Source of the DNA: Planctomycetota bacterium
GTDB lineage: Bacteria > Planctomycetota > UBA1135 > GCA-002686595
Reading direction: 5' to 3'
DNA: 64,000 bases
Assembly: GCA_028823345.1 (NCBI GenBank)
Contig: JAPKBR010000009.1
Coordinates: 26,551 to 90,550 of the forward strand
Position numbers and translations under genes: made by a program. This document shows, piece by piece, positions 26,427 to 63,662 of this stretch. Below the pieces are notes generated by a model. It saw only the letters and a program-made list of their open reading frames with translations. It was not told where the DNA came from and ran no database searches. How positions within the stretch are numbered: position 1 is the stretch's first letter; each line of letters starts with the position of its first letter.

Positions 26427-26475
26427 GGGCGCAGAATACCAAGGCGAAGCGCCCTGCGAGGCATCCACCCCGGGA

Positions 26476-28335: not shown

Positions 28336-28609
28336 GCGGAGTTTGGCGGAGAAGTCCTCATTTCGAGGGAAAAAATCAGCGCCCTGCCTCCAAAGCGGGT
28401 GTTTGGGGCCTTCCCCATGACGCCTGATTGGGACCCCTCTCTCCCATAAATCCAAGCGGGGCTTCGGAGGCGGGTTACTCCTGCCGATCAACTAGTACCA
28501 TCCTTGGAGTTCGAAGCGGTCAAGGGCCTCCCCATAGCTAGAATGCCGCGCGATCCCAGCACCTAAAGCTCCCCACTCTGGGCACCCACCTCCGATCCCA
28601 CCGACTATC

Positions 28610-39394: not shown

Positions 39395-39407
39395 GGCCCC
39401 ACAACAC

Positions 39408-40142
39408 ATGAGCACCCACGACCTAGACCTCCTGATCATTGCCGCCCACCCCGACGATGCGGAAATTGCCCTCGGGGGCACAATCCTGCGCTTGACCGAT
39501 CGGGGCCACCGGGTGGGCATCCTGGACCTGACCCGGGGCGAGATGGGCACCCGCGGAACCGTAGAGGACCGGGACCAGGAGACGGCCCAGGCGAGCCAGA
39601 AGCTGGGCCTCGCGGTCCGCCGCAACCTCGGGCTCCCTGATGGGCGTTTAGTGCCCGGCGTTTCCGAGCGCGAGGCCGTAGCCGCAGTCATCCGTGAACT
39701 TAGACCCACTATAGTAGCCGGTCACAACCCAAATGATCCCCACCCTGACCATCGGGGTGCGGGTGAATTGGCCCGCGATGGGTGGTATTTGGCAGGTCTC
39801 AAGCGTCTAGCAGAGCAAGCGGGCGGCCCCCCGGCCCAGCGCCCCCCGGAGAGATTCATTTTCCAATCCCACACGGGATTCGATCCCACCCTCGTGGTGG
39901 ATATCAGCGCCTACTTTGAACGCAAGGTAGAGGTCATCCAGGCCTACGCCAGCCAACTTGCCCCTAGCAGTCCAAAGGATGATGGGGCTCACCTCCTACG
40001 GGGCCGAGACATCCTCGAACGGGTCACCCACAAGGCCCGGACCCATGGGGGGGCCATAGGCGTGGAGTTCGGCGAACCCCTCCTATGCGCCGGCACCCTG
40101 AGCGCAGACAGCAGACTGCTGGCCCTGCTCGGTTCGGCCTAG
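39408..40142 (+). CDS. bshB1: N-acetyl-alpha-D-glucosaminyl L-malate deacetylase BshB1 (LmbE/PIG-L family)
   Basis: AHPDDAEIALGGTI, LDLTRGEMGTRG and HPDH motifs. Confidence 0.85.
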   Translation: MSTHDLDLLIIAAHPDDAEIALGGTILRLTDRGHRVGILDLTRGEMGTRGTVEDRDQETAQASQKLGLAVRRNLGLPDGRLVPGVSEREAVAAVIRELRPTIVAGHNPNDPHPDHRGAGELARDGWYLAGLKRLAEQAGGPPAQRPPERFIFQSHTGFDPTLVVDISAYFERKVEVIQAYASQLAPSSPKDDGAHLLRGRDILERVTHKARTHGGAIGVEFGEPLLCAGTLSADSRLLALLGSA

Positions 40143-40222
40143 GCTTGGGAAGAGGCCCCTACGAGCCTCAATCCCCCGGGCATGCCCCGAAGCCCCAGGG
40201 CTCCTCCTCCAAACAGTAGACT

Positions 40223-41638
40223 GTGGGGTTCATGCGTCGAATCGCCATCATCAATCAAAAAGGGGGAGTCGGCAAGACCACCACGGTTGCCAACCTTGGC
40301 GCGGCCCTGGCAAGGGCAGGCCAGCGGGTGCTCGTGGTGGACTTCGACCCCCAAGCCAACCTCTCCATGTACCTCGGGGTGGAAGTCCAACCCGGCGACG
40401 CCTCGGCCTACTCGGTGCTTTGCTCGAGTACGCCCCTGGATAGCGCCGTACACACGACCAACACGCCGGGCCTTGAGATTTTGCCCAGCCACATCGACCT
40501 TTCCGGTGCAGAGCTCGAGCTGGCCTCGACCATTGGGCGCGAGACTATTTTGCGAGACTCGCTCAGCGCTTGGGCCGAGCGTGAAGCCCAGGCGGGCAAG
40601 CCACTTGATTACATCCTGATCGATTGTCCCCCCAGCCTCGGTTTGCTTTCGGTGAATGCCCTGTGTGCCGCCAACGAAGTCCTGGTGGTCGCCCAAACCG
40701 AGTTTTTCGCCCTTCAAGGCCTATCCAAGCTGCTTGAGATCGTCGACCTGGTGCAAGCTCGCCTGAATCCCGAGCTCAAGGTGACGGGTGTTCTAGCTTC
40801 GATCTATGACGCGCGGTTGCGTTTGGCGCGGGAAGTTTTGGGAGAGCTACGCCGGTTCTTTCCGACCGAAACCTTTAGGACGACGATTGCCACCAACGTA
40901 CGCCTAGCGGAATCCCCCTCCCACGCCCAGACCATCTTCGAGTACGCCCCCGAGTCACGAGGCGCGCGGGACTACGCGGCCCTTGCGGAAGAAATGCTGG
41001 CCAATGAAAATGCCGCCAAGGCCGAACCCTCGGGCCTGGAAGAAAAAATCCACGACATAGCGGAAGCTGACGCCGGCCTGCGCCAAGGGGCCAGCGCCTC
41101 TCGCGCGGAAGCCCCCGAGCCCATCCCTAGCGCAGCCCCCTCGCCTGTGAATCCGCCGACCCAAGAGTCGTCCGGAGGCTCGCCCTCGATAACAAGCGTC
41201 AGTACTGCCCAGGCCCCAACCACACTGAACCCCAGCCCAAGCGCGTTTGAGCCGAGCGTTACAACCCCCGCCGCGACCCAAGTGGCGATTGTGCCGACGC
41301 CCACAGCGACCCTCACATCGGACGCCTCTTTAGAAGCGGAAAGAGCCCTTGAGTGGAATCACGCGGGCGCAGAATTCATCGAGGCCCCCCCGGCCGCGAC
41401 CCCCGAGGTGCTCGCCGAGCCCGCCGTTGAAGAATGGATTGTGCTACATCCACCCGAGCCCCAAGTGGGTGGCACCCCTGTGGTGGCGTTCGAGGAAACG
41501 CAAGAGGCCCCAGAGCCAGTTCCCTTTGATACGCCCGCAAGATCCAAGCCCCGCCCGAGCCTACGCACCTCTTCCTGGGGTGACTACATGGGCGAAGAAC
41601 GATCCCGGCCGGTCTGGCCCAGCAAAACGTGGGAATGA
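40223..41638 (+). CDS. ParA/Soj-family ATPase with a ~215-aa Pro/Ala/Ser/Thr/Glu-rich C-terminal extension
   Basis: Deviant Walker A IAIINQKGGVGKTTTVANLG, plus DFDPQ and LIDCPPSLG motifs. The ParA core ends near residue 255, and the remainder is low-complexity. Confidence 0.88.
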   Translation: MGFMRRIAIINQKGGVGKTTTVANLGAALARAGQRVLVVDFDPQANLSMYLGVEVQPGDASAYSVLCSSTPLDSAVHTTNTPGLEILPSHIDLSGAELELASTIGRETILRDSLSAWAEREAQAGKPLDYILIDCPPSLGLLSVNALCAANEVLVVAQTEFFALQGLSKLLEIVDLVQARLNPELKVTGVLASIYDARLRLAREVLGELRRFFPTETFRTTIATNVRLAESPSHAQTIFEYAPESRGARDYAALAEEMLANENAAKAEPSGLEEKIHDIAEADAGLRQGASASRAEAPEPIPSAAPSPVNPPTQESSGGSPSITSVSTAQAPTTLNPSPSAFEPSVTTPAATQVAIVPTPTATLTSDASLEAERALEWNHAGAEFIEAPPAATPEVLAEPAVEEWIVLHPPEPQVGGTPVVAFEETQEAPEPVPFDTPARSKPRPSLRTSSWGDYMGEERSRPVWPSKTWE

Positions 41639-42774
41639 ACGACCGAATGTGTGTGGGTGTCCTGTGCCACCCAACCTATGGGGGCTCGGGGGTTGTGGCC
41701 AGCGAATTGGCGATTTCCATGGCGCGCATGGGGCATGAGGTGCACCTCTTCAGCCACGAGGTTCCGCCACGCCTTGCGCGCTCCAGCGGACCCGTGGAAA
41801 TGCACGTGGCTCGGGGTGTGCCCTATCCCCTTTTTACTTCCACACCGCATGATCTCGCGGTGACTTCCAAGGTGTTGGAAATCCATCGCCAGCGCGGCTT
41901 TGACATCCTTCACGCGCACTATGCCCTACCCCATGCGGTGAGTGCATTTTTGGCGCGGGAGGCATCGAAGAGCTACACGGAGCACCCTCCGCCTAGGGTC
42001 ATCACCACCCTCCACGGGACCGACATCACCCTTGTGGGGAATGACCCCGCCTATGCCCCGCTCACTGAACACGTGCTGCGGGCCAGCGACGCAATCACCG
42101 CGGTGAGCCATGATTTAGCGGCGCGAACAAAGGAGGCCTTCTGCCAGTCTGCCCTCTCTTGCCCGGTCGAGGTGGTGCCGAACTTTGTGGACATCAACGC
42201 TTTCTCCCCAAGCAGCGAGCCCCGCCGCAGTGTGCCGACCTTCGTGCACGTCTCCAACTTTCGCTCGGTCAAACGCGTGCCTTGGCTGGTGCGCGCCTTT
42301 GCTATCGCCGCCACAGGCACAAACGCACAATTGGTCTTGGTGGGGGATGGCCCCGACCAGCCGGAAGCCCGGCGGGTCGCCAATGAGGGCGGGGTTCAGG
42401 AACAGGTGACGTTCCTCGGCGAACGTGATATTTTGCCCTCACTCTTGGCGCCCATGACCGCCTTCTGCCTGACCAGTCGCGAGGAGAGCTTCGGCCTCTC
42501 TGCTCTGGAGGCCATGTCCTGTGGCACTCCCGTGATCAGTACCGACGTGGGGGGTGTTTCAGAAGTGGTGGAAGACGGAGTCTCGGGCGTTCTATGTGCC
42601 GCCGATGACCTAGAAGGCTACGCCCGGGCCATGCGCGGAGTCATCGATGATCGCGAACGGGCCGAAGAAATGGGTCTGGCCGCCCGGGAACGCGCGGTCG
42701 GGACGTTTGCTCGGGAAGCAGTCATTCCACGCTATGAGGCCCTCTACCGCCGGGTTCTTGGGAAGCACCCATGA
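41635..42774 (+). CDS. bshA: N-acetyl-alpha-D-glucosaminyl L-malate synthase BshA (GT4 glycosyltransferase)
   Basis: N-terminal CHPTYGGSGVVASELA, typical of BshA, and a GT4 C-terminal E(E)SFGLSALEAMSCGTPVI. ATGA overlap with the parA-like stop. Confidence 0.8.
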   Translation: MNDRMCVGVLCHPTYGGSGVVASELAISMARMGHEVHLFSHEVPPRLARSSGPVEMHVARGVPYPLFTSTPHDLAVTSKVLEIHRQRGFDILHAHYALPHAVSAFLAREASKSYTEHPPPRVITTLHGTDITLVGNDPAYAPLTEHVLRASDAITAVSHDLAARTKEAFCQSALSCPVEVVPNFVDINAFSPSSEPRRSVPTFVHVSNFRSVKRVPWLVRAFAIAATGTNAQLVLVGDGPDQPEARRVANEGGVQEQVTFLGERDILPSLLAPMTAFCLTSREESFGLSALEAMSCGTPVISTDVGGVSEVVEDGVSGVLCAADDLEGYARAMRGVIDDRERAEEMGLAARERAVGTFAREAVIPRYEALYRRVLGKHP

Positions 42775-43904
42775 AGAAGGTCTACCTCGATCACAACGCC
42801 ACCGCGCCCCTGCGCCCTGAAGCTCGAAAGGCCCTCGAAGAGGCCCTCGACCTAGGCCTTGGCAATCCCTCAAGCGTCCACCACCGGGGTCGCGCCGCCC
42901 GCGCCCTCGTGGATGAGGCCCGCGAACGCATCGCCGGAGCCCTTGGAGTTGCGGAAGAGGAGCTGACCTTTACCAGCGGCGGAACCGAGGCCCTCAACCT
43001 GGCCATTCTCGGAGTGATGGGGGAGGCGCCGGACCGGGGCGGCTTGGCTACCTGCCAAACCGAACACTCGGCAGTCCTGGGAGCCTGTGCTTTGGCTGCT
43101 GACAGGGGCGCGCAACTGACGACCCTGGGGGTCGACGCCTTAGGGCGTGTGGACCTGGAGTCGGATCGGGGTGCGCTGGGAGCGGCGCACCTGGTTGCCA
43201 TCGCCTCCGCCAACGGCGAAACCGGAACACAACAAGACCTCGAAGCCGTGCGCGTCGCCATGGGTGGGGAGGATAGGGGTTTGCTCTGTGTTGATGGGGT
43301 GCAGTCCCTAGGGCGTGAGCCCCTGTCCTGGCTAAAAGGGGTCGCAGACATGGCCGCGTTCAGTGCTCACAAGGTGGGCGGCCCTCAAGGGGTAGGGTTT
43401 CTTTGGAAAAACCGAAGGGCTTCGCTTGGCCCTTTGTGCGCAGGGGGCGGGCAGGAAGAGGGCCTGCGTCCGGGCACAGAAAACGTGGCGGGAATCCACG
43501 CAGCGTCGATTGCAGTGGAGCTCGCCGCCAGGGAAGCGCGAGAGCAGGCCCCTCGCCAACGGGCGCTGCTCACGACCCTCGCCCAGGGGCTCTTCGCCGC
43601 ATTCCCCCAACTGGATCTCAACGGCCCCCCCGTGGAAGACCCCGGGCGATTGCCCAACACCTTAAATGTGGCCTTCCCTGGAACTGAAGGCCGCATTCTT
43701 GTGGTCCGCCTCGACCTTGCGGGCCTTGAGGTTTCCGCGGGGAGCGCATGCGCAAGCGGCTCCCTTGAACCGTCCCACGTGCTGCTCGCTATGGGCCAAG
43801 GAGGGGAGCGCGCACGCGCCGGACTGCGCATCTCCCTGGGCCCAACGACCACCGAACAAGATATCCACAGCGCTGTTGATATCCTGCGGAAAACTCTGCG
43901 TTGA
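42771..43904 (+). CDS. Cysteine desulfurase (NifS/IscS-like aminotransferase class V)
   Basis: PLP-Lys motif SAHKVGGPQG and catalytic Cys loop GSACASG. ATGA overlap with bshA. Confidence 0.88.
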   Translation: MKKVYLDHNATAPLRPEARKALEEALDLGLGNPSSVHHRGRAARALVDEARERIAGALGVAEEELTFTSGGTEALNLAILGVMGEAPDRGGLATCQTEHSAVLGACALAADRGAQLTTLGVDALGRVDLESDRGALGAAHLVAIASANGETGTQQDLEAVRVAMGGEDRGLLCVDGVQSLGREPLSWLKGVADMAAFSAHKVGGPQGVGFLWKNRRASLGPLCAGGGQEEGLRPGTENVAGIHAASIAVELAAREAREQAPRQRALLTTLAQGLFAAFPQLDLNGPPVEDPGRLPNTLNVAFPGTEGRILVVRLDLAGLEVSAGSACASGSLEPSHVLLAMGQGGERARAGLRISLGPTTTEQDIHSAVDILRKTLR

Positions 43905-44167: not shown

Positions 44168-45634
44168 ATGCCCGACACAACCACCATAGCTGAACTAACC
44201 CCAGACGCTCTCGCTGCAGCCTGGGCCTCTGTTTCCGAAAGCTTGCACGAAGAGATCGGCCCACAGAGCTACACCACATGGTTCAGCATGTGCGTTCCTA
44301 CTGGACTAGAGGAAGGGGTGATGACCCTGGCCGCACCGAACTCGTTCACCAAGCGCTGGATCGAAGAGAACTACAGTTCCAACCTCGATCGCCTCGTCAA
44401 GGCCGCCATTACGAGCGCCAAGTTGATTGTGGTTGACGTCGACCAAGAGGCGTGCACCGAGGCCTACGTGGAGGACCAAGACAAGGGCCCGGTAAACAAA
44501 GAGGAAGGCGACTCGGCGCGGCCCACGCCCCAGGACCGCCCCCGGGGCTCACTGCTTGCAACCTCGGATTTTGTTCTCAACCCCAACTACACCTTTGAGA
44601 GTTTCGTGGTGGGGCACTGCAACCGCTTCGGGTCCGCACTCGCCACCGGCGCGGCCGAACAGCCGGGAACAACCTACAACCCCCTGTTTCTTTACGGCTC
44701 GGTAGGCGTGGGCAAGACCCACCTGTTGCAGGGGCTCTGCCACCGCATCCTTGAAAAGAACCCTAAGAGCCGAATCCTGTACGTGTCCTGTGAGACCTTC
44801 GTCAATCACTTTGTGGGCGCTTTGGAGCAGCGCACCCTGCCGGCATTCCGTGACAAGTACCGAACCGTAGACGTCTTGGTCGTGGACGACATCCACATCC
44901 TCGCTAACAAGGATCGCACCCAGGACGAGTTCTTCCACACGTTCAACCACCTCTACAACGAGCAGAAGCAGATCGTGCTTTCCTCGGATGCCCCCCCCCG
45001 GGAAATCCCCACCCTTCATGACCGCCTGGTGTCGCGCTTTCAGTGGGGCATCGTGGCCGAGATCGAGCCCCCTTACTATGAAACCCGCATGGCCATCATT
45101 AAGCGCAGGACTCGGGAGAGGGGTAAGCCCTTCCCTGACGATGTGGTCCAGTGGATTGCCGAGCGGGTGCAGGACAATGTTCGCGAGCTCGAGGGTGCCG
45201 TGGCGCGTTTGATTGCGTTCTCGGAAATGACGAAGCGCCCGATCAGGCTCGACCTGGCCCACGAAGCCCTTGGGAGCTTTCTGCAGCTCACGCCCGGAGC
45301 CCCCTCTGTGGACGCCATCATCGGAGCCATCACGAAGCAGTACGACGTCAAACTAAGTGACCTGCAGGGCAAACGCCGCACCAAGTCGATCATTTGGCCC
45401 AGGCAGCTGGCCATGTTCCTGTTCCGCGTGCTCCTGCCCTGGTCCCTGGAAGAGATCGGGGCCTACTTTGGCGGCCGCGACCACTCAACGGTCCTCCATG
45501 CTGTGAAAAAGGTCCGCATCCGCGCCCGGGAGGAGGAGGGTGTCCAGGGCGAGCTCTCAACGCTGCTTACCCTCGTGGGGGGCGGGCCCCTGGACCAGCA
45601 CCTCTTGGAAGGGGTCTCAAAGAAGGGGTCCTAG
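44168..45634 (+). CDS. dnaA: Chromosomal replication initiator protein DnaA
   Basis: Walker A GSVGVGKTHLLQ, VDDIH, sensor motifs, and a C-terminal DNA-binding domain (GGRDHSTVLHAVKKV). Confidence 0.97.
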   Translation: MPDTTTIAELTPDALAAAWASVSESLHEEIGPQSYTTWFSMCVPTGLEEGVMTLAAPNSFTKRWIEENYSSNLDRLVKAAITSAKLIVVDVDQEACTEAYVEDQDKGPVNKEEGDSARPTPQDRPRGSLLATSDFVLNPNYTFESFVVGHCNRFGSALATGAAEQPGTTYNPLFLYGSVGVGKTHLLQGLCHRILEKNPKSRILYVSCETFVNHFVGALEQRTLPAFRDKYRTVDVLVVDDIHILANKDRTQDEFFHTFNHLYNEQKQIVLSSDAPPREIPTLHDRLVSRFQWGIVAEIEPPYYETRMAIIKRRTRERGKPFPDDVVQWIAERVQDNVRELEGAVARLIAFSEMTKRPIRLDLAHEALGSFLQLTPGAPSVDAIIGAITKQYDVKLSDLQGKRRTKSIIWPRQLAMFLFRVLLPWSLEEIGAYFGGRDHSTVLHAVKKVRIRAREEEGVQGELSTLLTLVGGGPLDQHLLEGVSKKGS

Positions 45635-45739
45635 CCCCTCCCTGGAGACCCGGAGGGGACTGCGCCGAAGAGGCCTCTGGGCTGGCCCCCTGGGGCTCTT
45701 CCGGGCCGCCCTGCGCGATTTCCAGCCACCCTTTCCCGC

Positions 45740-46040
45740 CCCCAGCCCCAACCCTCCCCTGTGCATAACCTGTGAGTTTGCCGTTGATCCACCCGTGGAT
45801 TCTCTGTTTACCAATCGGGGACAAATTTCTCTCCAGGCCCCCCCTCAGGAACCTTCTGGACAGCTGTCGACAACTCGCCCAAAATCCACAGATTGTCCAC
45901 ACAAAAAGCGCCCCCTTCCACACGCTCCAACCTGCACATAAGTCCTTGAACACGCTAGAATTAGGGCCCCTCCCGGCCCGAGTCTTCCACGATTTCTAGC
46001 CCCCTATATTACTACGACTAATTCTTTAAAGGGATTCCTC
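45740..46040. other. Candidate oriC: DnaA-box cluster plus AT-rich unwinding element in the dnaA-dnaN spacer
   Basis: Boxes: TGTGCATAA (45760-45768, the reverse of TTATGCACA), TGATCCACC (45785-45793), AAATCCACA (45882-45890), TTGTCCACA (45893-45901). AT-rich CTATATTACTACGACTAATTCTTTAAAGG at about 46004-46034 within an otherwise GC-rich 454-nt spacer. Confidence 0.5.
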
Positions 46041-46088
46041 TGAACAACTCCTCCCCGTTCACGAACCCCTGACCAGCAACATCCAATC

Positions 46089-47186
46089 ATGAAGATCACC
46101 TGTCAACGTGAAAAGCTCCGTGAAGCCTTGTCCATCATCAACACGGTCGTCCCTGCACGGGGAGCAAAGCCAATCCTTGAGAACCTTAAACTGGTTGCCA
46201 CTGACCAGGGCCTTGAGCTTGTGGGAACAGACCTTGAGGTCTCTGCACGAATCACTGTTGAAGATGCTCAGGTTGACGAAACCGGAGTCGCGGTCTTGCC
46301 CTGCAAGGTTGCTTTGGATTTTGTCAGGGACCTCAACAGCGAGACGGTGACGATTTCCTGCGAAGAGGATAAGTGCCTCATCAAAGGAGATACGGACCAG
46401 TGTGAGCTGGTGACCCTCGATGTAGATGAGTTTCCGGTGATCTCACACTTCGAGGAAAAGGATGCCTTTAGCCTTCAGGGGGGAAACTTCTCTCGGCTGG
46501 TGCAACAAACCGCCTTTGCGGCTGCTCGGGATGCAGGCCGTTATGCCATGCACGGCGTCCTCGTCGAGATTGCCGACGATGAAGTTAAATTGGTTGCAAC
46601 CGACGGGCGGCGGCTGGCTCTTGGAAGTCAGCCCATCGATGCAAACGGGAAGAAACAGTCTGCAATCGTCCCCACCAAGGGGTTGCAGCTCTTTGCCCGT
46701 GCTATTGAGGACCCCCTCGACCAAATCAAGCTGAGCTTCGATGCAAACCAGGTCGGGATCCGAACCCAGAATGCTCAACTCTTTGCTCGCCTGATCGACG
46801 GGGATTTTCCTAGCTACAGCGCGGTGCTGCCTGAAGCGGGCGAACACCTCATGGAGGCGGACCGGGAACTCTTTACCCAAAAGCTCCGCCTCGTGGCAAA
46901 CGTCACCGGCGACGAAGCCCGTGCCGTCCGATTGACCCTCAGCAAGGGCAAGTTAGAGCTCAAGGGACACTCCGCTGGGCGCGGATCTGCTGACGCCCAA
47001 CTTGAGGTGGAATACACCGGTGAGGGCTCCGAGATTGCGTTCAACCCCGACTATGTGCTCGATGGGCTTAAGCAGTGCCAATCCGAAACCATCCGCTTGG
47101 AGTTCCAACAGCAGTCCAGCCCCGGCAAATTCATGCTTGGGGAAAACTACATCTACATTGTGATGCCCATCACAATTGATGCCTGA
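46089..47186 (+). CDS. dnaN: DNA polymerase III beta sliding clamp
   Basis: 365 aa with three-domain clamp architecture, positioned directly after dnaA. Confidence 0.95.
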   Translation: MKITCQREKLREALSIINTVVPARGAKPILENLKLVATDQGLELVGTDLEVSARITVEDAQVDETGVAVLPCKVALDFVRDLNSETVTISCEEDKCLIKGDTDQCELVTLDVDEFPVISHFEEKDAFSLQGGNFSRLVQQTAFAAARDAGRYAMHGVLVEIADDEVKLVATDGRRLALGSQPIDANGKKQSAIVPTKGLQLFARAIEDPLDQIKLSFDANQVGIRTQNAQLFARLIDGDFPSYSAVLPEAGEHLMEADRELFTQKLRLVANVTGDEARAVRLTLSKGKLELKGHSAGRGSADAQLEVEYTGEGSEIAFNPDYVLDGLKQCQSETIRLEFQQQSSPGKFMLGENYIYIVMPITIDA

Positions 47187-47228
47187 TCACTGACGCTCGG
47201 CTTCCACCGGCACCACCCAGAATCTCTG

Positions 47229-47555
47229 TTGAGCGCTATTCGTAAATCGACCATCTCCCATGGGGAACCCCTCGTGTTCGGAGATGCCCTGAAGCGCTAT
47301 CTGCGCGAGTCGGGCCTAGGGGCAAAGCTGCGCAGCGGCGACGTGCACGAGGCCTGGAGCAAAGCCCTTGGACCAAAACTAGCCGGACGGGCACGTTCGG
47401 TCAGCTACCGGGGAGGCGAGCTTGTCGTGGAGGTGGAGTCCGCCGTTCACAAGCAAGAGCTCGAATCATTCACCGCCGAACGATACCGGCGGAAAACCAA
47501 CCAACTTCTCGGGACGGAACGAATCCACCGAGTGACCATCAAACTGAAGAAATGA
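47229..47555 (+). CDS. DUF721 (DciA-like) protein
   Basis: 108 aa with the DUF721 pattern (VHEAWSKALGPKLAGRARSVSYRGGELVVEVESAVHKQEL). TTG start. ATGA overlap with gyrB. Confidence 0.75.
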   Translation: MSAIRKSTISHGEPLVFGDALKRYLRESGLGAKLRSGDVHEAWSKALGPKLAGRARSVSYRGGELVVEVESAVHKQELESFTAERYRRKTNQLLGTERIHRVTIKLKK

Positions 47556-49993
47556 CCATGACCGAGAGTCAACCCTCTGGCAACTACGACGCCGGCCAAA
47601 TTTCCGTACTGGAAGGCCTTGAGGCCGTCCGTAAACGGCCCGCTATGTACATCGGCGATACCGATGTGCGTGGCGTGCACCACCTGATCTGGGAAGTGGT
47701 CGATAATGCTGTGGATGAAGCCCTGGCGGGGTTTGCGTCCCACTGCGTGGTCAAGTTGCACGAAGACGGTTCTGTGACCGTGGAGGACGATGGCCGCGGC
47801 ATTCCCGTGGACATCCACCCCGAAGAGGGGGTCTCGGCTCTCGAGCTGGTGTTGACCAAGCTCCATGCCGGCGGAAAGTTCGGCGATGGGGCCTACAAGG
47901 TCTCTGGCGGCTTGCACGGTGTGGGCGTTTCCTGCGTGAATGCCCTGGCGGAGTCTCTTGTGGTTACCGTTTACAAGGACGGCCAGATCCACCGCATGGG
48001 CTTCGAGCGTGGGGACGTAAAAACCCAAATCGAAGTGATCGGCGACACGGAACGCACGGGCACTACGGTGCGCTGGAACCCGGACCCTGAGATTTTTAGC
48101 ACGCTGGAGCACCAGCACGAGATCGTTCAGAAGCGCTTGCGGGAGACCGCCTACTTGATGGGCCGCAGCGGTTTGCGCCTCGAGCTGTTTGACGAGCGCA
48201 CCGATACCCACGAGGTTTTTGAATACCCCGATGGCTTGATCGCTTTCGTGCAAGACGCCAACAAGGCGCGCACCCCGCTGCACCCGGAAGTCCTGTCCTT
48301 CGAAGGATCCGAAGATTCCAGGGATAATCCAGGGGAGGTCTATGAGGTCGAGCTGGCCATGCAGTGGACGGATAGCTACCAGGAAAACGTCTTCACATTC
48401 GTCAACAACATCCACACCCAGGGGGGAGGCACGCACCTAACGGGCCTTCGGTCGGCTCTTGCCCGCTCTTTGGGTAACTACGCTCGTAGCGAAGGCTTTC
48501 TTAAGGACAGCGACAAGGCACCGTCGGGCGAAGACTACCGCGAAGGCTTAACCGCCGTCTTGTCTCTGAAGGTGCCCAATCCCCAGTTTGAGGGACAGAC
48601 CAAGGACAAGCTGGGAAACCGTGAGGCCCAGGGCATCGTCGAGTCTGTGGTTGGCAAGAAGGTCAGCACATTCCTCGAAGAGAACAACAAGATTGCCAAG
48701 GGGATCGTCATGAAGGCGATCCAGGCCAAGACGGCCCGGGATGCTGCGCGCAAGGCGCGGGACCTAGTCCGGCGTAAGAGCGCCCTTGCCAGCGGCAGTT
48801 TGCCCGGCAAGCTGGCGGACTGTCAGTCAAAGAAACGCGACGAGACCGAACTCTTTATTGTCGAAGGTGATTCGGCTGGCGGCCCCGCAAAAATGGGGCG
48901 CGACCGGCGGATTCAGGCTATTTTGCCCATCAAGGGTAAGATCCTCAATGTCGAGAAGGCCCCCTTGGACAAGATGCTTGCACACCAAGAGATCTTGCTC
49001 ATTGTCCAGGCGCTCGGCTGCGGAATTTCGGGGGATTTGGACCCTGAAAAAATCCGCTACGGCAAGACGATCATCATGACTGACGCTGATGTGGACGGAT
49101 CGCACATCCGCACGCTACTGCTGACGTTCTTTTTCCGGCACATGCGCCCCCTGATTGATGAGGGCCGGCTGTACATCGCTCAGCCTCCCCTCTTTAAGGT
49201 GTCCAAGGGCAAGAAGTACAAGTACCTGGTTCACGAGAACGCCCTGCGTGGGTACTTGTCGGAAATCGGTACCGCCCAGATGAAGATTGAGGACTCAGTC
49301 AGCAAAACGACCTTTGAGGGAGCCGCCATGCGCGAGCTTGCCCTCGTGCTGACCGAGCTTGACGGGCTCAAGGGCGCGGTGATTCCCATTTGGGCGCCGA
49401 TCACCTACTCCGAACTCATCGGCCGCTGGAACGGGGAGAAACTCCCCACCTGGTGGGCGCGCGCGGACCAGACGGACCACTTCTTCGAGACCCTGGAGGA
49501 GTACGAGAACTTTGTCGAGCTCCGGCGCGGCATGGTGAAAGAAGACCTGGTTATTTACAGCGGCCCCGAGGGCGGCGTCTTGATGGCGGACTCTCACATG
49601 CAGGGCAGCAAACTGATGCGCTCCGCCGATGTCGCCGACTGTCTCACCAGCTTGGCGGCCATGGGGATCAGCGTGAATGGGGGCGGCACCTGGACCGTGA
49701 CGGGCGGCAAAGAGCCTAGGGAGTGCAGCGAGATCAGCGAGCTGGCCCTCGTTACCCGCAAGACGGCTGAAACGGGCGTGGATATCCAGCGCTACAAGGG
49801 TCTTGGCGAGATGAATGCCGACCAGCTTTGGCACTCCACCATGGACCCCGAGACACGCACGCTGCTGAAGGTTTCGGTGGGGGATGCTTTTGAGGCGGAC
49901 CAGATATTCACCATCCTGATGAGCGACGGGGTCGAGGCGCGGCGTGATTACATCGAGAAACACGCGCTTGAGATCATCAACCTGGACGTTTGA
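47552..49993 (+). CDS. gyrB: DNA gyrase subunit B
   Basis: GHKL ATPase (LEAVRKRPAMYIG, HHLIWEVVDNAVDE, GGLHGVG) and Toprim (EL(F)IVEGDSAGG, IMTDADVDGSHI). Confidence 0.97.
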   Translation: MTMTESQPSGNYDAGQISVLEGLEAVRKRPAMYIGDTDVRGVHHLIWEVVDNAVDEALAGFASHCVVKLHEDGSVTVEDDGRGIPVDIHPEEGVSALELVLTKLHAGGKFGDGAYKVSGGLHGVGVSCVNALAESLVVTVYKDGQIHRMGFERGDVKTQIEVIGDTERTGTTVRWNPDPEIFSTLEHQHEIVQKRLRETAYLMGRSGLRLELFDERTDTHEVFEYPDGLIAFVQDANKARTPLHPEVLSFEGSEDSRDNPGEVYEVELAMQWTDSYQENVFTFVNNIHTQGGGTHLTGLRSALARSLGNYARSEGFLKDSDKAPSGEDYREGLTAVLSLKVPNPQFEGQTKDKLGNREAQGIVESVVGKKVSTFLEENNKIAKGIVMKAIQAKTARDAARKARDLVRRKSALASGSLPGKLADCQSKKRDETELFIVEGDSAGGPAKMGRDRRIQAILPIKGKILNVEKAPLDKMLAHQEILLIVQALGCGISGDLDPEKIRYGKTIIMTDADVDGSHIRTLLLTFFFRHMRPLIDEGRLYIAQPPLFKVSKGKKYKYLVHENALRGYLSEIGTAQMKIEDSVSKTTFEGAAMRELALVLTELDGLKGAVIPIWAPITYSELIGRWNGEKLPTWWARADQTDHFFETLEEYENFVELRRGMVKEDLVIYSGPEGGVLMADSHMQGSKLMRSADVADCLTSLAAMGISVNGGGTWTVTGGKEPRECSEISELALVTRKTAETGVDIQRYKGLGEMNADQLWHSTMDPETRTLLKVSVGDAFEADQIFTILMSDGVEARRDYIEKHALEIINLDV

Positions 49994-56507: not shown

Positions 56508-56683
56508 GGGGGGCGGTCTTGGGGGCAGAATAGGCCCTGGGGCCTCAGCTATCGAGGGTCTTTGGCGCTTCTTGCCGTGGGCCGGTCTTCAATCTTACAA
56601 TGCGATGCCCGTGACCGTCCCCTTGGACGGCAGCATCTTCCGCGGGTCAGCTGCGGAGCGGCTCATTGAGCCCACAAAACCAT

Positions 56684-57682
56684 ATGTCCAAAGGCGCGAC
56701 CCAAACAAATCGGGTGAATCAGGCGATCGAAGTGATTCGTATCGAAGCGGAGGCGATCAGCAACCTCGCGGAGAGTCTCCGCGCGGGGGGCTCGGAGGGT
56801 TTTGATCGGGCCGTGACCGCCATCCTGGCCTGCTCCGGGCAGGTGGTTGTGACCGGCATGGGCAAGGCTGGCCTCGTGGGCCAAAAAATCTCAGCGACCT
56901 TGGCATCCACCGGCACGCCGTCCCTGTTCTTACACCCGGCCGAGGCGTTGCACGGCGACCTTGGGCGCATTCGCTCGGGGGATGTGCTTTTGGCCCTGTC
57001 AAATTCTGGAGAGACCAACGAGGTCAACGGCCTGGTGCCGGTGGCGCGCCGGATCGGGGCCAGCGTTTTTGCTCTCACGGGCCGTGAGGACTCGACCCTT
57101 GGAAGCCTTGCGGACGGCATTCTGGGGATTGGTCGCATCGAGGAGGCTTGCCCTCTGAAGCTTGCGCCCACTGCATCTACCACCGCCATGCTTGTTCTCG
57201 GGGATGCGCTTGCCATGGTCGTCCTAGAGGAGCGGGGCTTTCAACGCACGGACTATGCCCAGTTCCATCCGGCGGGCTCCCTCGGGCGGCGCTTGATGAG
57301 CATCTCTGAGGTCATGCGCAAGGGCAAGGAGCTCCCCGTGGTCAAGAGCGGCGCGAGCATTCTGGATGTGCTCCGCATGACGAGTGAAACACCTGGCCGT
57401 CCCGGTGCTGCGTTGGTGCTCAACCCGGACGGCAGCCTAGCCGGCATCTTCACCGATGGCGACCTGCGCCGGGTGATCGAACAAAACGGGTCCAGTGCCT
57501 TGGAGGATCCCGTGGACGACCACATGGGCCGAAACCCCAAGTCCCTGTTGCCGGATCAACTGGCCGAGGAGGCCATGCGCCTTTTTGCCGAGCACCGCAT
57601 CGACCAAGCACCGGTTTTGGACTCCAACAATCACCCACTGGGGCTTGTGGACATTCAAGACCTTATGGATCTAGGAATCTAG
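56684..57682 (+). CDS. kdsD: Arabinose-5-phosphate isomerase (KdsD/KpsF; SIS plus CBS pair)
   Basis: VVVTGMGKAG, ALSNSGET, and a C-terminal CBS pair. The ATG at 56684 is preferred over the TTG at 56666. Confidence 0.9.
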   Translation: MSKGATQTNRVNQAIEVIRIEAEAISNLAESLRAGGSEGFDRAVTAILACSGQVVVTGMGKAGLVGQKISATLASTGTPSLFLHPAEALHGDLGRIRSGDVLLALSNSGETNEVNGLVPVARRIGASVFALTGREDSTLGSLADGILGIGRIEEACPLKLAPTASTTAMLVLGDALAMVVLEERGFQRTDYAQFHPAGSLGRRLMSISEVMRKGKELPVVKSGASILDVLRMTSETPGRPGAALVLNPDGSLAGIFTDGDLRRVIEQNGSSALEDPVDDHMGRNPKSLLPDQLAEEAMRLFAEHRIDQAPVLDSNNHPLGLVDIQDLMDLGI

Positions 57683-57691
57683 AGGGTACCT

Positions 57692-58231
57692 ATGGCGCTT
57701 CAATTAACTCCCGAGCTGACAGAGCGCCTAGCCCAGGTGCGGCTTGTGGCCTTGGATGTGGATGGGACCTTGACTGACGGATCCGTCATCTATGGGGACG
57801 ACGGACAAGAGGTGCGTTTTGATGTGCGTGACGGCCAAGGTATGGTTTGGCTCGTGCGTGAGCTGAGCCTTGAGCTGGCCTGGATCACGGGTCGTGGATG
57901 CCTCGCAGTGGAGCGCCGCGCGGCGGAATTGGGCGTGAAGCACCTGGAAATGCACTCGGGTCCAAAGGCGGAGGTCTTGCGGTCTTTGCAGGAACGTCTC
58001 GGGGTCACGCCCGCAGAGACATTGGCTATGGGAGACGATCTTCCAGACCTTGGGCTTGCCTCAAGGGCAGGGATTTTCTGCGCGCCAGCTGATGCGCGTG
58101 AGGAGGTTCGCGCGGCCGCAACTTGGGTCACAGATTCCCCCGGTGGCCGGGGTGCCCTTCGCGAAGTGGCCGAGGAGCTGCTCCGGGCGAGAGGCTGCTG
58201 GGAGGACCTCGTGTCCCGCGCAAGGAAATGA
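57692..58231 (+). CDS. kdsC: 3-deoxy-D-manno-octulosonate 8-phosphate phosphatase (HAD, YrbI family)
   Basis: LDVDGTLTDG, DVRDGQG, GDDLPD, and GGRGALREV. Confidence 0.9.
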   Translation: MALQLTPELTERLAQVRLVALDVDGTLTDGSVIYGDDGQEVRFDVRDGQGMVWLVRELSLELAWITGRGCLAVERRAAELGVKHLEMHSGPKAEVLRSLQERLGVTPAETLAMGDDLPDLGLASRAGIFCAPADAREEVRAAATWVTDSPGGRGALREVAEELLRARGCWEDLVSRARK

Positions 58232-61200
58232 GACGGGCGCTCCTCTTTATCTTGCTCTTCGGCGGCGGAATGGTGCTGCTGGTAATGTTCGACCGCCTCA
58301 ATCGGGAGCCGGCGAATCATACGCCAGCGGGGCAGGAAATCCCCCTGGATGGAGCATTGGTGGATACTCAGACGGTGGAGGTTTCGGGCTACACAAAGAT
58401 GGAATTCTTTGATGCGGAAACAGGCTTGGTATTCCGTGAGTTTGAGGCTTCCGACCTGCAGCCGAAAGGGCAGGGTATGGTGCGCCCCTATCTGGCCACA
58501 GGCTTGACGATACTTGAGTATGTGCAAGGAAGCGGGGACTTGCTCCGGCGTGTAGATGCGGAGTCGGCGGACCTTGTATTGGACCTTGGCGGCGGCCTTG
58601 GCGGCCCTCAGCTTGGGGGCGGATCAAAAATTCAGTTGCACCAAGTGCGTCTGGAGCAACTGCGCGACTTGCCCCAGGCGCCCCTGACGGTGACGGCGCC
58701 AGAGATCCTCGCGGAATTGGACTCGCAGATCTACAGGGCCGATAACGAGCATCAGGTCAAGGTGGTGGGCGAAGGCCTCACGGCAGAAGGGAGCGGACTG
58801 TTTTTTGACGCGCGTGCGGGTCACCTGGAATTCCCCATGGGGGGCACCGTGGATTTGCTGCGAACGGGAGTTCGCCGCGGAGTCTTGTCCACAGCCGTGG
58901 GCACTCCCCTTGTCTTGAAGCAACAGGACGGCGAGCGGGGAGAGCGCTTTGAGATCACCGCCGATGGGCCTTCGGTCCTGGTTTTAGTTCAAGGACAAGA
59001 GCTCCAGTTGGATGCTGAATATTTGCATGTGGAGACGCGCGTGGGCGAGTCGGGGGTGGAGGTGAGCCGCATTATTGCCCGGGGCCCCACGGTGGTGACC
59101 CGTGGTGCGGACCGCTTTGGCGGCATCGATGCCACCGTCCAGTTTGAGCCCGATGGTTCTGTCCGTTTTGAAGTGGCAAGCAAGCCCTGGTTCTCTCTTG
59201 GTGATGGAGCCACACCAGATGCTCCGGCCTTGGTCACAATGACCGGAGAAGGAGTGTTGTGGGCGGTGGACGGTCCGGACGAGCTGCTTTTCGGGTTGGA
59301 TGGGGAGGGCGAGATTGCCGGGCCAGAGGGGTCGCGGCTTGAGGCCCAAGATGGGTTTACCGGCACGCTGGCGGCAGACCGGGGTTCGGTGGATTTGGAC
59401 TTGCATGGGGAGGTGTTCATGGGTCAGGCGGGGCTGGAGATCTTCACGAGCAACGCGCACTTAGTTTTGATGGGCGGTGACGAGCTGGAGCTCAGGCTCC
59501 AGACCGGCGAGCCCTTGCAGATAATCTCGAACGCTGGGGGAGAACCGACCGGAGCGCTCACCGCCGTGGGCGGGGCGGATCTGATTCTGGAGGAGGGAGA
59601 GGTGCAGGTGATTCATGCTCTTGGGGTACAGGCGGAAACCTTCGGGGGCTTGGAGGGGAGCTTGTCCTGTGATGAACTCAAGAATTTGTCGGCAGACTTC
59701 CTTCATTTTGACGCCAAAGGAAAGGTGTCCTGGCAAACACCCGATGGTTCCGGGTTTGCTGACCGCATGGTTGCTAAGGGGGACCAAATCGAGCTATTCG
59801 GCATACCGGGGCAAAAGGCTCAGCTTGCGTGGCGCGACGAGGGAGCGCAGATCGCAGAATTGGAAGCCATGCGCGTGGTGGCGTCCGCAACTCACGCCGA
59901 GGCGTGGGAGGATGTGCGCGTGGATATTGTTCTGGCCGCATCCCAATTGGGCATGGGGTGTGCTCACACGCGCATCGATCAGGTGGGCCACGACTTTCAC
60001 TGGCGCGCGGAAAAGGTGACCGATGGGCTTTGGACCGAAGGCGAGACGGTCGTTGCCTTGGAGGCCGGAGTCTTAGAGGCAGATTGGAGCCGCATCGAGC
60101 AAGAGGACGGGTCTTTTATCCGTCAGGCCAGCCTGGTGCAAGTGCAAGAGGATGTGCGGGCTCATATAACCCAGGGCAACACCGTGAACGTGCAAGCGGA
60201 CTCCCTGACCATGATACCGGGGCAGAGCATCACGCTTAGTGCTTTGCCTGGAAGACAAATTACCGCGAGAGGATTGTTACCCGCCACGGGTTTTCCATTC
60301 ACTGTTCACGGAACACTAATGGTTGTTCAACAGGACGAGGTCCGGTTGCAGGGGGTGAAGGGTGTGCTTGAGGGTGCGCTCCTGCCCTTGTCCCCCGGCG
60401 CCCCTAAAGGCGCCGACCACCTGCGTGAGAACTCCGATTTCGCAGCAAACCTCTTTGTGTTGACGAGGACCAGCCTTGAGCTTGAGGGAGAGGCCTATCT
60501 TGAGTCCGCTGACCTAGACGGCAACCCCCTGAACCTTACGGCGGATCGAATTTCCAGCGGTTATGACTTACCCCCAGACCAGGCTCGGCCAGGCCCCGCG
60601 AACATTCATTTCATCAACGCAGAGGGCAATGTGCGGGCGGCGTACGGAGGCCTTGCGCGCTTCGAGGCGGATGAACTGCTGGTGGATCACGAGCGAGTGA
60701 TTCTGCGGGGAAGTCCGCTCTTGGCCCGATCGGAGGGCTTTCGTTTTGAAACCACTGAGGCAACCTTTGGATTGGCGGACTATTTGCTCGATGCGGAAGC
60801 CGGCATCATCCGTCAGGGCCCCGCCTGGAGTCTGGCTTTCAGTGGGGCCGCCGGGGTTCGCACCGGCGCAGACCTGATGCAAACGATCAGTGGCCTCGTT
60901 CATGTTAATTTTGATGAAACCTCCCGGGCGGATTACATGTCCATTTGGTTGCACCCATCCCGCTGGAGGGCAATGATCCATGAGCGCCTATGGGGAACCC
61001 CATTGGACTTGGACTATGAGGGTTTGGTCACCGAGGCGCCAGGCCTTCAAGAAACGGAGCTGGTCAACAACACTTTCCAGCGGCTGGCCCGGGGCGAGCT
61101 AGCCTCTTTTGTGCGTGCGTTTCACCTTTGGGGCAGCGTTGAGGTAGCGAGCCAAGGCGTTCGAAGCGCGAGGGCGGAAGAGGCATACCTCGACCTAGAG

Positions 61201-63150
61201 GGCCGCCGCGGCTGGCTTAAGGAAACTGAGCTTGGGTTTGAGATCGAAGTGAGGGGCAAGACGGAGCGCTTGCGTGCATTTGCAGGTCGCTTGGACAGCT
61301 TGCCCTCGGGCGGCCTTGTGGCTTCGGACGCGACCTTGACCGCATGCAATCATGAGATCCCGCACTATGTCATCGAGACCTCGGATCTGCGCCTCGAACC
61401 ACGCGCCGACGGACACTGGAAGTTCGGCGTGAGCGGAAACCGTCTGCGCTTCCCCGGGGGCTTTGGCTTGCCCTTGCCAGGCATCGGCAGCGTCGTGCTG
61501 GACGAAGCTGGCAGTTTCGAGGGATTTGAAGACGAGGACGGCAAGATCCGCACGATTCAGAATATCTTTCTTTCCAGCACAGCTCGATTTGGAACGGCCC
61601 TTGGCACAGAGGGCACCACGGACATTGGATCCCTGGGGCAAAGCGTGGCAACCGTCTTTGGCTTCGACAAGACACAGGCCAGTGGCCAGTGGAAGTACGA
61701 AGGTGCTTGGCTAGGATCTCGCGGCCCGCTCTTAGGCATGGGCTTGCTCCTACGCGAAAACGAAAGCGGACCTAGCAGGGACGACGTCTATTGGCTGAAC
61801 CTCTGGGCGAGGGGTATCCACGATCAAGGCGAGGACCGCGGCGTATTGCGTGTAGAAGACGGCACGGAAAGTGACACACGTTTGTGGTTGAACGCGCGGG
61901 GACGGTATCCCTTCGACAGTCGCCAGTGGATTGATGCGGTGGTCAACTACCAGACCGACCCAGGTGTTCAGTCTGAGTTTTATGAGCGTGAATACCTCGA
62001 TTATGAAGAGAGGGACACTTATCTCCATTGGCGTAAGGCCCGTGATGGGCACTACTTCAGCGCGAAGGTCTCGGACCAGGGCAATAGTTTCCGGAGCGCC
62101 GTGCTCGAAAGGCCCGCCGTCGGGTTCTATCGAGGAGCCGCCGAGGTTGGTCGGGTCCTCGACCACTCGCTGAGTTATTCCGCAAGCGTCGATGCGGCCT
62201 ATCTAGAGAGGCGCGAGGGCGACCTAGATTTTGAACCCGCCTTCTTGGGCTTGGATGGCAACCCTGACGGACTTGGCGACCGTAGGGTGATGAGGGTGGA
62301 CACAATTCACGAGCTCGCCTTGCCCGTAGGTATTGGCGAGAGTGGTATCACCGCAGTTCCGACGCTCGACTTGCAGGCAACCTCATGGGACCGTTCGGTG
62401 AACGACAATAAGACGGTCGGTCGGGCCGGGGTATTTGCCGGACTCGAGATGGGGGGCTCGTGGGCACGTATTTCAGACACGAGCGCCACCTCTATTTCGC
62501 CGTTCATCAGTCACAGGGAACAGCTTTGGATCGACGAAGAGGTGGGGCAAATTGTGCAATTCGATTCCCTCGACCAACCGATTGGCGGGAGCCGCTCGGG
62601 GGTGGGTTTGCGCCTGCGGTGGACGCGTCCGGTTTCGAACGATCGTATGGATTTTGACCTAGGCCTGGAGCGTCTGCACGGGAACCCCCAGAGCGCGGCG
62701 CAATTGGACACTGCCCGGTTTTTAGGCAGCCTGGGGACGACGGCCTTTGGCATACCCATGGGCGTTCGACATGACGGGCGCTATCTGTTTGATGAGGGCG
62801 AAACCGCCTATTCCAAGTCGGTGTTTGCCATCAAGCCGGTGGACTGGTTTGAGTTTCAGTTGGTTCATGACCGGGGCAACCAAGCGAACCTGGACACCCT
62901 CTATGAGGCGATCACCTACCGCGGACGCATAACCCTCGATGCTAAGTGGGAGGTGGATGCGCTGGCTCAACACGCAATCTTTGGCGGAGGATCCCTGCGC
63001 TCAGAACTGCTCCTGCGCCGCATTGGGCACGACTTTATCTTCGAGGTGGGCATCTTTCACCGGGAGGGGGAGGGGTCTGGAATCAAAGTCGACCTTGCGC
63101 CCCTTCTTGGGTGGACCCGTTCCCGGGTTAGCATCTTGTCTCCCCGCTAG
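58228..63150 (+). CDS. lptD: Giant (1640 aa) LptD/OstA-family LPS-assembly protein with an N-terminal membrane anchor and a ~1000-aa periplasmic extension
   Basis: ATGA overlap with kdsC. N-terminal anchor [21 protein letters not shown]. OstA-type motif [23 protein letters not shown]. LptD-like landmarks [38 protein letters not shown] and [17 protein letters not shown]. Beta-rich C-terminus. Confidence 0.55.
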   Translation: [1640 protein letters not shown]

Positions 63151-63176: not shown

Positions 63177-63662
63177 GTGTTAGGCCTTTTTGGAAACCTA
63201 GATCTTGTGGAGCTGGTGGTCATCGCCGGGGGGGCAATCCTTGTCTTTGGGCGCAGTTTGCCCCAGGTCACCATGCGTGGGGTGACACAAGTGATGAAGC
63301 TCCGGCGTGCGGTGACTCAGATGTGGCGCGATGCGGGCATCGAAGACGAGTTGCGGCGCGTGCGCTGGGACCTCGAGCGGGAAGCTCGCGAGGTGAAGGA
63401 TGTTACGACCCTCGACCAGGTCGAGCCCGCCACCCCCGTGCCAAGCGTCCCGGACTACACGATCACCGAGCGCGAAAATTTAGAGAGCGAGCCCGGGGGT
63501 ACACCCTCGGGTCCTTGGCTCGAAGACCCTTCCAGCGAGGGCCCCTCCGAAGAGGAGGCCCGCGCCCAACAGGGTCATGACGAGGCCGGGCACGATTCAG
63601 ATGAAAAAGAAGTGGCTCAAAGTCCGGACGATGCCGAAGCTGACACCTCCCGCGAGGAATGA
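63177..63662 (+). CDS. Twin-arginine translocase TatA/TatB-family subunit
   Basis: MLGLFGNLDLVELVVIAGGAILVFGRSLPQV (TM segment plus FG..LP hinge), an amphipathic helix, and an acidic tail. GTG start. Confidence 0.7.
   Translation: MLGLFGNLDLVELVVIAGGAILVFGRSLPQVTMRGVTQVMKLRRAVTQMWRDAGIEDELRRVRWDLEREAREVKDVTTLDQVEPATPVPSVPDYTITERENLESEPGGTPSGPWLEDPSSEGPSEEEARAQQGHDEAGHDSDEKEVAQSPDDAEADTSREE

Follow-up and report, generated by a model that had tools for sequence, protein, structure and literature searches.

The window analysed here, that is, the whole stretch of 64 kb (64,000 nucleotides of contig JAPKBR010000009.1 from a Planctomycetota bacterium, assembly GCA_028823345.1), contains a giant gene located directly downstream of the Kdo (3-deoxy-D-manno-octulosonic acid) synthesis genes kdsD and kdsC and upstream of a gene for a TatA/B-like protein (Table 1). 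The stop codon of kdsC and the start codon of the giant gene, read directly from the sequence, share the tetranucleotide ATGA (58228-58231), and translation of this gene is probably coupled to that of kdsD-kdsC. The initial annotation of this DNA had described a single 1640-codon gene with this overlap, had noted that the next gene is tatA-like and not lptA or lptB, and had proposed that the product combines LptC, LptA and LptD of the lipopolysaccharide (LPS) transport (Lpt) system in one chain. The open reading frame (ORF) and the overlap were verified, kdsD and kdsC were identified by TIGR family matches, and the TatA/B-like nature of the next gene is supported by a weak NCBIfam match and by PF02416 on a syntenic orthologue. 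The 'sugar isomerase' expected further downstream corresponds to a partial ORF, for which PDB sequences gave no match; the assignment is consistent with a PF01261 (AP_endonuc_2) xylose-isomerase-like TIM barrel in the orthologue at the related locus L087, and its basis is this orthologue, not the window copy. The gene kdsD is the first of a conserved kdsD-kdsC-bridge-tatA block, and the rest of the window carries housekeeping genes including dnaA, dnaN, gyrB, gyrA, murJ and an RNR gene.

Table 1. Features of the giant gene and its neighbours (positions are those of the window; residues are those of the giant protein)
Feature	Position	Strand	Basis and remarks
kdsD (arabinose-5-phosphate isomerase)	56666..57682	+	TIGR00393, E=1e-86; Pfam SIS and CBS
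kdsC (Kdo-8-phosphate phosphatase)	57692..58231	+	TIGR01670, E=6e-34, exceeds the curated cut-off
Giant gene	58228..63150	+	Uninterrupted 1640 codons and stop; GenBank MDE0903852.1, 'hypothetical protein'; read as fused LptC-like/LptA-like (~5)/LptD
Predicted transmembrane helix	58228..58299	+	Residues 1-24; M-R-R and an 18-residue apolar core; proposed uncleaved signal anchor
Linker	58300..58386	+	Residues 25-53; pLDDT <50 for residues 26-47; conservation 0.26; probably disordered; Pro/Glu-rich in homologues
Module 1, LptC-like β-jellyroll	58387..58860	+	Residues 54-211; Pfam LptC in homologues, Foldseek LptC
~5 tandem LptA/OstA-like β-jellyroll modules	58861..60822	+	Residues 212-865; model, repeats, LptD_N matches in homologues
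N-terminal periplasmic domain of the LptD unit	60823..61527	+	Residues 866 to ~1100; helical insertion at ~910-960; invariant Cys1040 in T-x-C
LptD-type outer-membrane β-barrel	61528..63147	+	Residues ~1101-1640; ~24-26 strands; model, Foldseek, hhalign
TatA/B-like small membrane protein	63177..63662	+	Acidic tail; weak NCBIfam match; PF02416 on the syntenic orthologue in L084

The giant protein belongs to a large family. A word-indexed search returned only 10 relatives; when the C-terminal 870 residues were used as a profile in an exhaustive search of a library of 50%-identity cluster representatives, 774 of these matched at E ≤ 0.001. Among the best 150 of the 774 matches, at least 86 are proteins of at least 1550 amino acids. 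The matches form two length classes, one of ~1650-1950 amino acids, which includes the window protein, and one of ~780-845 amino acids, which starts at the equivalent of residue ~866 after a classical signal peptide (...GSLHA/QEE, ...GLARA/QEA). All named members are annotated as 'hypothetical protein'.

A scan of one genome per species revealed 126 loci, the best 80 of which were used for the locus comparisons together with the window (81 in total). Nearly all of the 80 are labelled as Planctomycetota or Planctomycetaceae metagenome-assembled genomes (MAGs), and a few only as 'bacterium'. Two partial family members, P0214 and P0219 (cluster of P0043), carry a Paracoccaceae MAG label in GenBank, in contrast to the Planctomycetota labels of the other members, and are probably binning contaminants. 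The survey of related genomes suggested by the initial annotation thus recovered the same fused architecture widely: an uninterrupted ORF of at least 1500 amino acids is present in 66 of the 81 loci, ~4-6 loci are cleanly split, and the remainder are cut by contig ends. Fused and split forms were seen together at no locus examined. Two intermediate LptD-containing ORFs, in L018 (1330 amino acids) and L044 (1153 amino acids), are not cut by contig ends and may reflect a frameshift, an assembly error or an architectural variant. The kdsD-kdsC-gene-tatA synteny is kept in ~60 Planctomycetota species, with tblastn matches for kdsD in 67, kdsC in 60 and the TatA/B-like gene in 58 sources including the window (66, 59 and 57 related loci, respectively). 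An assembly or frameshift artefact was rejected, since two independent assemblies (the 91-kb NCBI MAG contig and a 28.8-kb Logan contig) contain the identical protein and the long ORF is found in 66 species.

The C-terminal ~775 residues of the protein were predicted to fold like LptD. In an AlphaFold2 model of residues 771-1640, built from 8 sequences, a jellyroll precedes 26 long strands, which lie within residues 1113-1625. When this model was compared with the PDB using Foldseek, the top 35 matches were all LptD chains, from seven genera, with E values of 6e-19 to 3e-7 and template modelling scores (TM-scores) relative to the target of 0.39-0.57, full-length LptD being aligned over 780-950 columns. 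The next matches, an usher and TonB-dependent receptors, had E values of only ~1e-3. The β structure at residues 866-908 and 962 to ~1100 was modelled at high confidence. It is interrupted by an α-helical insertion (60955-61107, residues ~910-960), which is specific to this family, lies inside the LptD N-terminal jellyroll and is modelled partly at low confidence; the stand-alone short class shares the conserved tryptophans that flank it, W907 and W913. In this insertion the protein differs from LptD structures, in which no counterpart is known.

Sequence profiles led to the same assignment once they were deep enough. A shallow profile of 8 sequences (A2) gave no hhalign match with E. coli LptD, which at first cast doubt on the LptD landmark motifs listed in the initial annotation. 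With a deeper profile of the LptD unit (A5, 20 sequences), a search against 5.8 billion proteins matched P0236, annotated as 'LPS-assembly protein LptD' (PF04453, PF03968, PF19838), at E=2e-4. In the hhalign comparison of A5 with P0236, the match had a probability of 96.6% and E=6e-10 over 496 columns (query 168-762, template 159-729 of 759), beginning at residue ~1013 and including the TTC motif. The paired columns are those of the landmark motifs, T-x-C...PHY being aligned with 'fttcpestpdw', LPLP with 'ilylpyls' and DPGVQSEF with 'vsda--eyfedf'. The corresponding segments TLTAC...PHYVIET, GNRL.F...LPLPGI and WLNARGRY...DPGVQSEF belong to the positions that do not vary within the family. In six homologues PF04453 matches at the C-terminal end are sub-threshold (18.3-19.6 bits vs a cut-off of 22.4) and colinear. 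The conserved cysteine of the 'TTC' motif of true LptD aligns with Cys1040 (61345-61347). The barrel half of the window protein contains no cysteine at all, and the inter-domain disulfides, of which enterobacterial LptD has two (PMC8727689), therefore cannot form here. Thus, the fold and the profile-level homology establish the C-terminal unit as an LptD homologue, although scores stay below the curated thresholds.

The region upstream of the LptD unit was modelled as residues 1-1000 from 45 sequences. This model is confident (predicted local distance difference test, pLDDT, of 86.3) and comprises a helix (residues 2-24), a disordered stretch (26-47) and 63 β strands that run unbroken from residue 54 to 908, mostly with pLDDT of 85-96, followed by the helical insertion and more β structure. 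In Foldseek searches it matched LptC (3my2/4b54) with a TM-score of 0.81, a root-mean-square deviation of ~2 Å and a probability of 1.0, as well as full-length LptC from the LptB2FGC complex (6mit_C, TM-score 0.71), and also LptA (2r1a), LptH (4uu4) and LptD chains. The stretch between the anchor and LptD, expected in the initial annotation to be β-rich over ~1000 residues, is indeed β-rich, and its length is ~810 residues (54-865).

Pfam matches in homologues place these folds along the chain. Among 28 diverse long-class homologues, the Pfam families matched most often were LptC (in 5, best E=6e-7), LptD (in 4) and LptD_N/OstA (in 3), ahead of DUF3769 (in 2) and four more families in one member each. 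All LptC matches, found in five homologues, map onto window residues 64-211, and the gathering score (cut-off 21) is passed by P0038 (28.7 bits) and P0108 (24.8 bits). Six homologues have LptD_N/OstA matches, which fall on residues 282-320 and 382-441, that of P0031 passing its gathering score (22.0 bits vs 20.4). The order along the chain is accordingly LptC at 64-211, OstA at 282-441 and LptD at the C-terminus. When A4 was aligned by hhalign with single E. coli LptC and LptA sequences, the alignments were colinear and non-significant (E=0.1 and 0.18).

When 120-residue segments of the family alignment were compared with one another by profile-profile alignment, internal repeats emerged at up to 96.8% probability; they are offset by 103-160 residues and have equivalent positions near residues 180, 290, 402, 505, 645 and 798. 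These repeats indicate approximately six putative modules of 100-155 residues. The OstA-type motif noted earlier at residues 797-819 lies within the last bridge module, which is repeat-related to modules with OstA matches in homologues. By eye, in our own reading outside the repeat analysis, a similar motif appears to recur around residue 970 in the LptD N-domain. As a rough estimate from the model, 63 strands in two sheets at ~4.8 Å per strand would extend over ~15 nm, the LptD N-domain and the 29-residue linker being extra. Thus, the jellyroll modules postulated for the middle of the protein are supported by a confident model, by LptC and LptA fold matches, by internal repeats and by position-consistent LptC and LptD_N matches in homologues.

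A long periplasmic β-sheet groove behind an N-terminal inner-membrane anchor is also typical of AsmA-like proteins such as TamB and YhdP, which the window protein would resemble in this respect. AsmA, TamB or DUF490 Pfam domains were found neither in the window protein nor among the families recurring across the 28 homologues, and no TamB or YhdP structure was present among the 50 fold matches listed, the eukaryotic bridge-like LPD-3 appearing at a probability of only 0.25. An AsmA/TamB-like lipid bridge was therefore rejected, having neither domain nor fold support. TamB itself lacks a barrel and depends on TamA.

The split relatives reveal a functional seam in this architecture. At locus L084 the neighbourhood is the same (scpA, an M50 protease gene, kdsD, kdsC, ..., tatA), with two genes at the place of the giant one. 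The first encodes a 923-amino-acid protein with the same anchor (MKRLLAFLILFGLGLALVLALDRRG), colinear with window residues 1-868, and the second a 797-amino-acid LptD-like protein (P0103) with its own signal peptide (...GSLHA/QEE); the stop and start codons overlap as TAATG. On the family hidden Markov model (HMM), the 923-amino-acid protein covers positions 2-864 and the LptD protein positions 863-1631, which gives a clean seam and puts the point of fusion or fission at residue ~864/865. In L084 the contact between bridge and LptD must be non-covalent, because the two are separate proteins. In the window protein, the seam falls within a confidently modelled continuous β module (pLDDT ~89-92 at residues 850-900), not in a linker. 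The existence of split versions with a seam at exactly this position would also be expected if the fused chain were cut there after export, yielding the same pair of proteins as in the split relatives. We give this explanation very little credence, since a cut would fall inside the continuous module just described, neither a protease domain nor a recognisable cleavage motif is present, and strand-to-strand pairing would hold the bridge together even if it were cut. The kdsD-kdsC synteny and the split variants fit a modular reading.

The N-terminal segment is the sole hydrophobic stretch of the whole protein, and the LptD half cannot be exported alone, because there is no second hydrophobic segment. 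For the same reason, an internal translation start for the LptD half was rejected. Of 83 long-class representatives, 54 have an apolar core of exactly 18 residues (median 18), and in 72 the core ends in L, I, F, W or V. It is followed directly by sequence rich in D, E, Q and R, without a conserved small-x-small (peptidase-type) site. Column conservation is 0.59 in the core, 0.26 in the linker and 0.36-0.39 in the modules, so the core is the best-conserved part of the extension. Signal peptides normally keep their physicochemical character only. In the stand-alone LptD relatives, the hydrophobic region has a median length of 11 residues and AxA-type sites are present. The conserved core and the lack of a cleavage site, unlike in these relatives, favour a functional, uncleaved transmembrane helix as in LptC. 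The proposed signal anchor thus resembles a conserved transmembrane segment more than a signal peptide, and from these sequence features we infer that it remains uncleaved in vivo.

The protein could instead be a long LptD whose signal peptide is cleaved, leaving an outer-membrane protein with an LptA-like arm that docks non-covalently on separate LptC/LptB2FG. Some homologues do have small residues soon after the core (for example, ...LIDGSSGP), the transmembrane helix of LptC is dispensable in E. coli, so that an anchor is not mechanistically required, and the search for separate lpt genes covered the window and the ±10-kb flanks of relatives. Against this are the core fixed at 18 residues with its bulky end and the D/E/R residues that follow, with no conserved small-x-small site, as well as its conservation, which is the highest within the extension, unlike that of signal peptides. 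Furthermore, classical signal peptides do occur in the stand-alone LptD relatives, which places the contrast within the family, and module 1 is LptC-like, not LptA-like, the model matching full-length LptC from LptB2FGC. We therefore consider a cleaved signal unlikely and prefer the membrane-anchored form.

Other components of the transport system were looked for within the same scope. Gene annotation searches and tblastn found no lptA, lptB, lptC, lptF or lptG anywhere in the 64-kb window, and tblastn with E. coli LptA, LptC, LptD, LptF and LptG gave no matches in the window and the 80 loci. The tblastn matches for LptB were generic ABC ATPases at a distance of 5-7 kb in 11 loci and show no conservation. 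A pair of ORFs of ~380 amino acids at 41629-43904, considered as lptF/lptG, was rejected, as they encode a GT4 glycosyltransferase and a class-V aminotransferase.

These results bear on whether the giant protein might be a paralogous Lpt-like conduit for another cargo (a glycolipid or lipoprotein), with a canonical Lpt system elsewhere in the genome exporting LPS. The extreme sequence divergence from LptD, LptA and LptC, the lack of conservation of the LptD disulfide cysteines and the restriction of the lpt gene search to the window and flanks would be compatible with such a role. On the other hand, the gene is tightly and widely linked to kdsD-kdsC, with a start/stop overlap, in a neighbourhood that holds lptC-lptA-lptB in E. 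coli; the profile search recovered one family, fused or split/stand-alone, whose two forms do not co-occur at any locus examined; and published surveys give a reduced, not a duplicated, Lpt set in Planctomycetes (PMC8871954). A different cargo is therefore improbable in our view, and LPS remains the preferred one.

Several observations weigh against a one-chain LPS bridge. No Pfam or NCBIfam model matches the window protein at E ≤ 1, most Pfam matches in its homologues fall below curated thresholds, and the family profiles (full-length A1 and LptD-unit A5) match no LptD among PDB sequences, their sole matches being chance-level ones to OspA and a designed Kelch protein. The initial annotation had named the absence of significant OstA or LptD HMM hits as an argument against its proposal; this absence was indeed observed for the window sequence alone and was overturned at the family level and by structure. 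The confidence of the barrel model is moderate (pLDDT 65.8, 8 sequences), the Foldseek matches to LptC and LptA come without matched residue positions, so that the positions were taken from the Pfam matches in homologues, and groove continuity, module count and bridge length rest on secondary structure and repeats. Of the four cysteines of E. coli LptD only Cys1040 (T-x-C) is kept, and LptB, LptF/G and LptE were found neither in the window nor in the ±10-kb flanks of relatives. All family members are from uncultured MAGs, and stand-alone lptA and lptC genes or a second, canonical lptD may possibly be present elsewhere in the genome.

The LptD unit, the jellyroll modules, the anchor, the synteny and the split variants nevertheless support the single-chain LptC/LptA/LptD bridge, and we consider it likely that the giant gene encodes a complete periplasm-spanning LPS conduit in one polypeptide. 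In such a conduit, the chain would be inserted by Sec, its N-terminal helix (residues ~2-24) staying in the inner membrane like that of LptC, and ~1600 downstream residues would be translocated. A flexible linker would lead to the LptC-like jellyroll (54-211) and to ~five LptA/OstA-like jellyrolls (212-865), which would run unbroken into the N-terminal jellyroll of LptD (866 to ~1100), and the C-terminal barrel of ~26 strands (~1100-1640) would be folded into the outer membrane by the β-barrel assembly machinery (BAM). Extraction of LPS from the inner membrane would fall to an LptB2FG-type ATP-binding cassette (ABC) transporter encoded elsewhere (none was seen here). The LPS would then enter the groove at module 1, would be pushed along a covalently continuous hydrophobic groove and would leave via the LptD barrel and its lateral gate into the outer leaflet. 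The uncleaved anchor, the continuity of the groove, the LPS cargo, the coupling to LptB2FG and the presence of one chain in both membranes are the elements of this scheme that we infer. We lean towards the view that one chain residing in both membranes forms the entire LPS bridge, its jellyroll number being fixed by the gene, and replaces stand-alone LptC and LptA in most species of the clade.

As in the Lpt system of E. coli, the path from the inner to the outer membrane runs through a transmembrane-anchored LptC-type jellyroll, LptA/OstA-type jellyrolls, the LptD N-terminal jellyroll and a barrel of ~26 strands, in this order. The genomic position is also shared, immediately after kdsD-kdsC, where E. 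coli has lptC-lptA-lptB. In contrast, one polypeptide with a fixed set of ~six modules plus the LptD N-domain would take the place of three E. coli proteins, and the number of LptA copies in the E. coli bridge is itself debated (PMC7347655). Stand-alone LptA is a soluble periplasmic protein, whereas the modules described here are covalently part of a 1640-amino-acid chain. Further differences are that lptB is not adjacent, that neither LptE nor LptM was identified in the window or flanks, that one of the four LptD cysteines is kept, and that the sequence is too diverged for Pfam and NCBIfam models. The split version at L084 is homologous and colinear over the full length, with the same anchor and the same scpA-M50-kdsD-kdsC-...-tatA synteny, and differs in consisting of two genes with a TAATG overlap and in the cleavable signal peptide of its LptD half.

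The long MlaD of diderm Firmicutes is the nearest precedent for a lipid-transport chain with both an inner-membrane anchor and an outer-membrane barrel. In Veillonella parvula (diderm Terrabacteria), this lipid-transport protein has been proposed to run in one chain from an inner-membrane anchor to an outer-membrane β-barrel (PMC10665443). In contrast to the protein described here, it has an MCE domain and an α-helical tunnel, forms an oligomer, carries phospholipids and has a fold unrelated to the Lpt jellyrolls. The barrel-bearing form of MlaD is reported to be absent from bacteria of the Planctomycetes-Verrucomicrobia-Chlamydiae (PVC) group (PMC10665443). An 'LptD' had been found earlier in Planctomycetes by a two-step BLAST procedure, without comment on its architecture (PMC3422733), and the Lpt system of Planctomycetes was described in a later survey as 'largely reduced' (PMC8871954), which fits components being hidden in an unannotated protein. 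A full-text literature search, whose coverage was incomplete, returned no description of a fused Lpt bridge, and an earlier description may exist.

Several other features of the window were noted. The genes dnaA, dnaN and gyrB (44168-49993) coincide with the minimum of the cumulative GC skew (~44-48 kb), and the window therefore spans the chromosomal replication origin; the giant Lpt gene lies ~10 kb from this origin on the leading strand. The region 37781-42774 encodes BshC (PF10079/PF24850), a BshB-like PIG-L deacetylase, a ParA-like AAA_31 protein of 471 amino acids and a GT4 glycosyltransferase, possibly BshA, and resembles a gene cluster for bacillithiol synthesis, here in a Planctomycetota MAG. 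On the reverse strand, a DUF374 gene overlaps a 671-amino-acid ORF without Pfam match (25686-28491); the DUF374 family is linked to lipid A/Kdo acyltransferase contexts. Also on the reverse strand (32873-34180), a protein of 435 amino acids has only a C-terminal HPr (phosphotransferase system phosphocarrier) domain, its N-terminal ~340 residues being without assignment.

If this reading is correct, a single-chain bridge would fix both the stoichiometry and the order of the modules in the gene itself, and bridge length could be read from the sequence and compared across species. Such a bridge would have a defined length and be permanent and covalent, and the two forms, fused and split, would represent a natural experiment on bridge assembly. 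It would also pose a puzzle of biogenesis, as BAM would have to fold the barrel while the N-terminus remains in the inner membrane, with the split relatives as a built-in control. For cryo-electron microscopy and tomography, the protein would offer a covalently linked and stoichiometrically defined target comprising a complete Lpt conduit. Finally, a fused bridge would explain why surveys describe the Lpt system of Planctomycetes as 'largely reduced' (PMC8871954), parts of it hidden in a 'hypothetical protein' having been missed by curated models, and the family alignments made here could seed such models.

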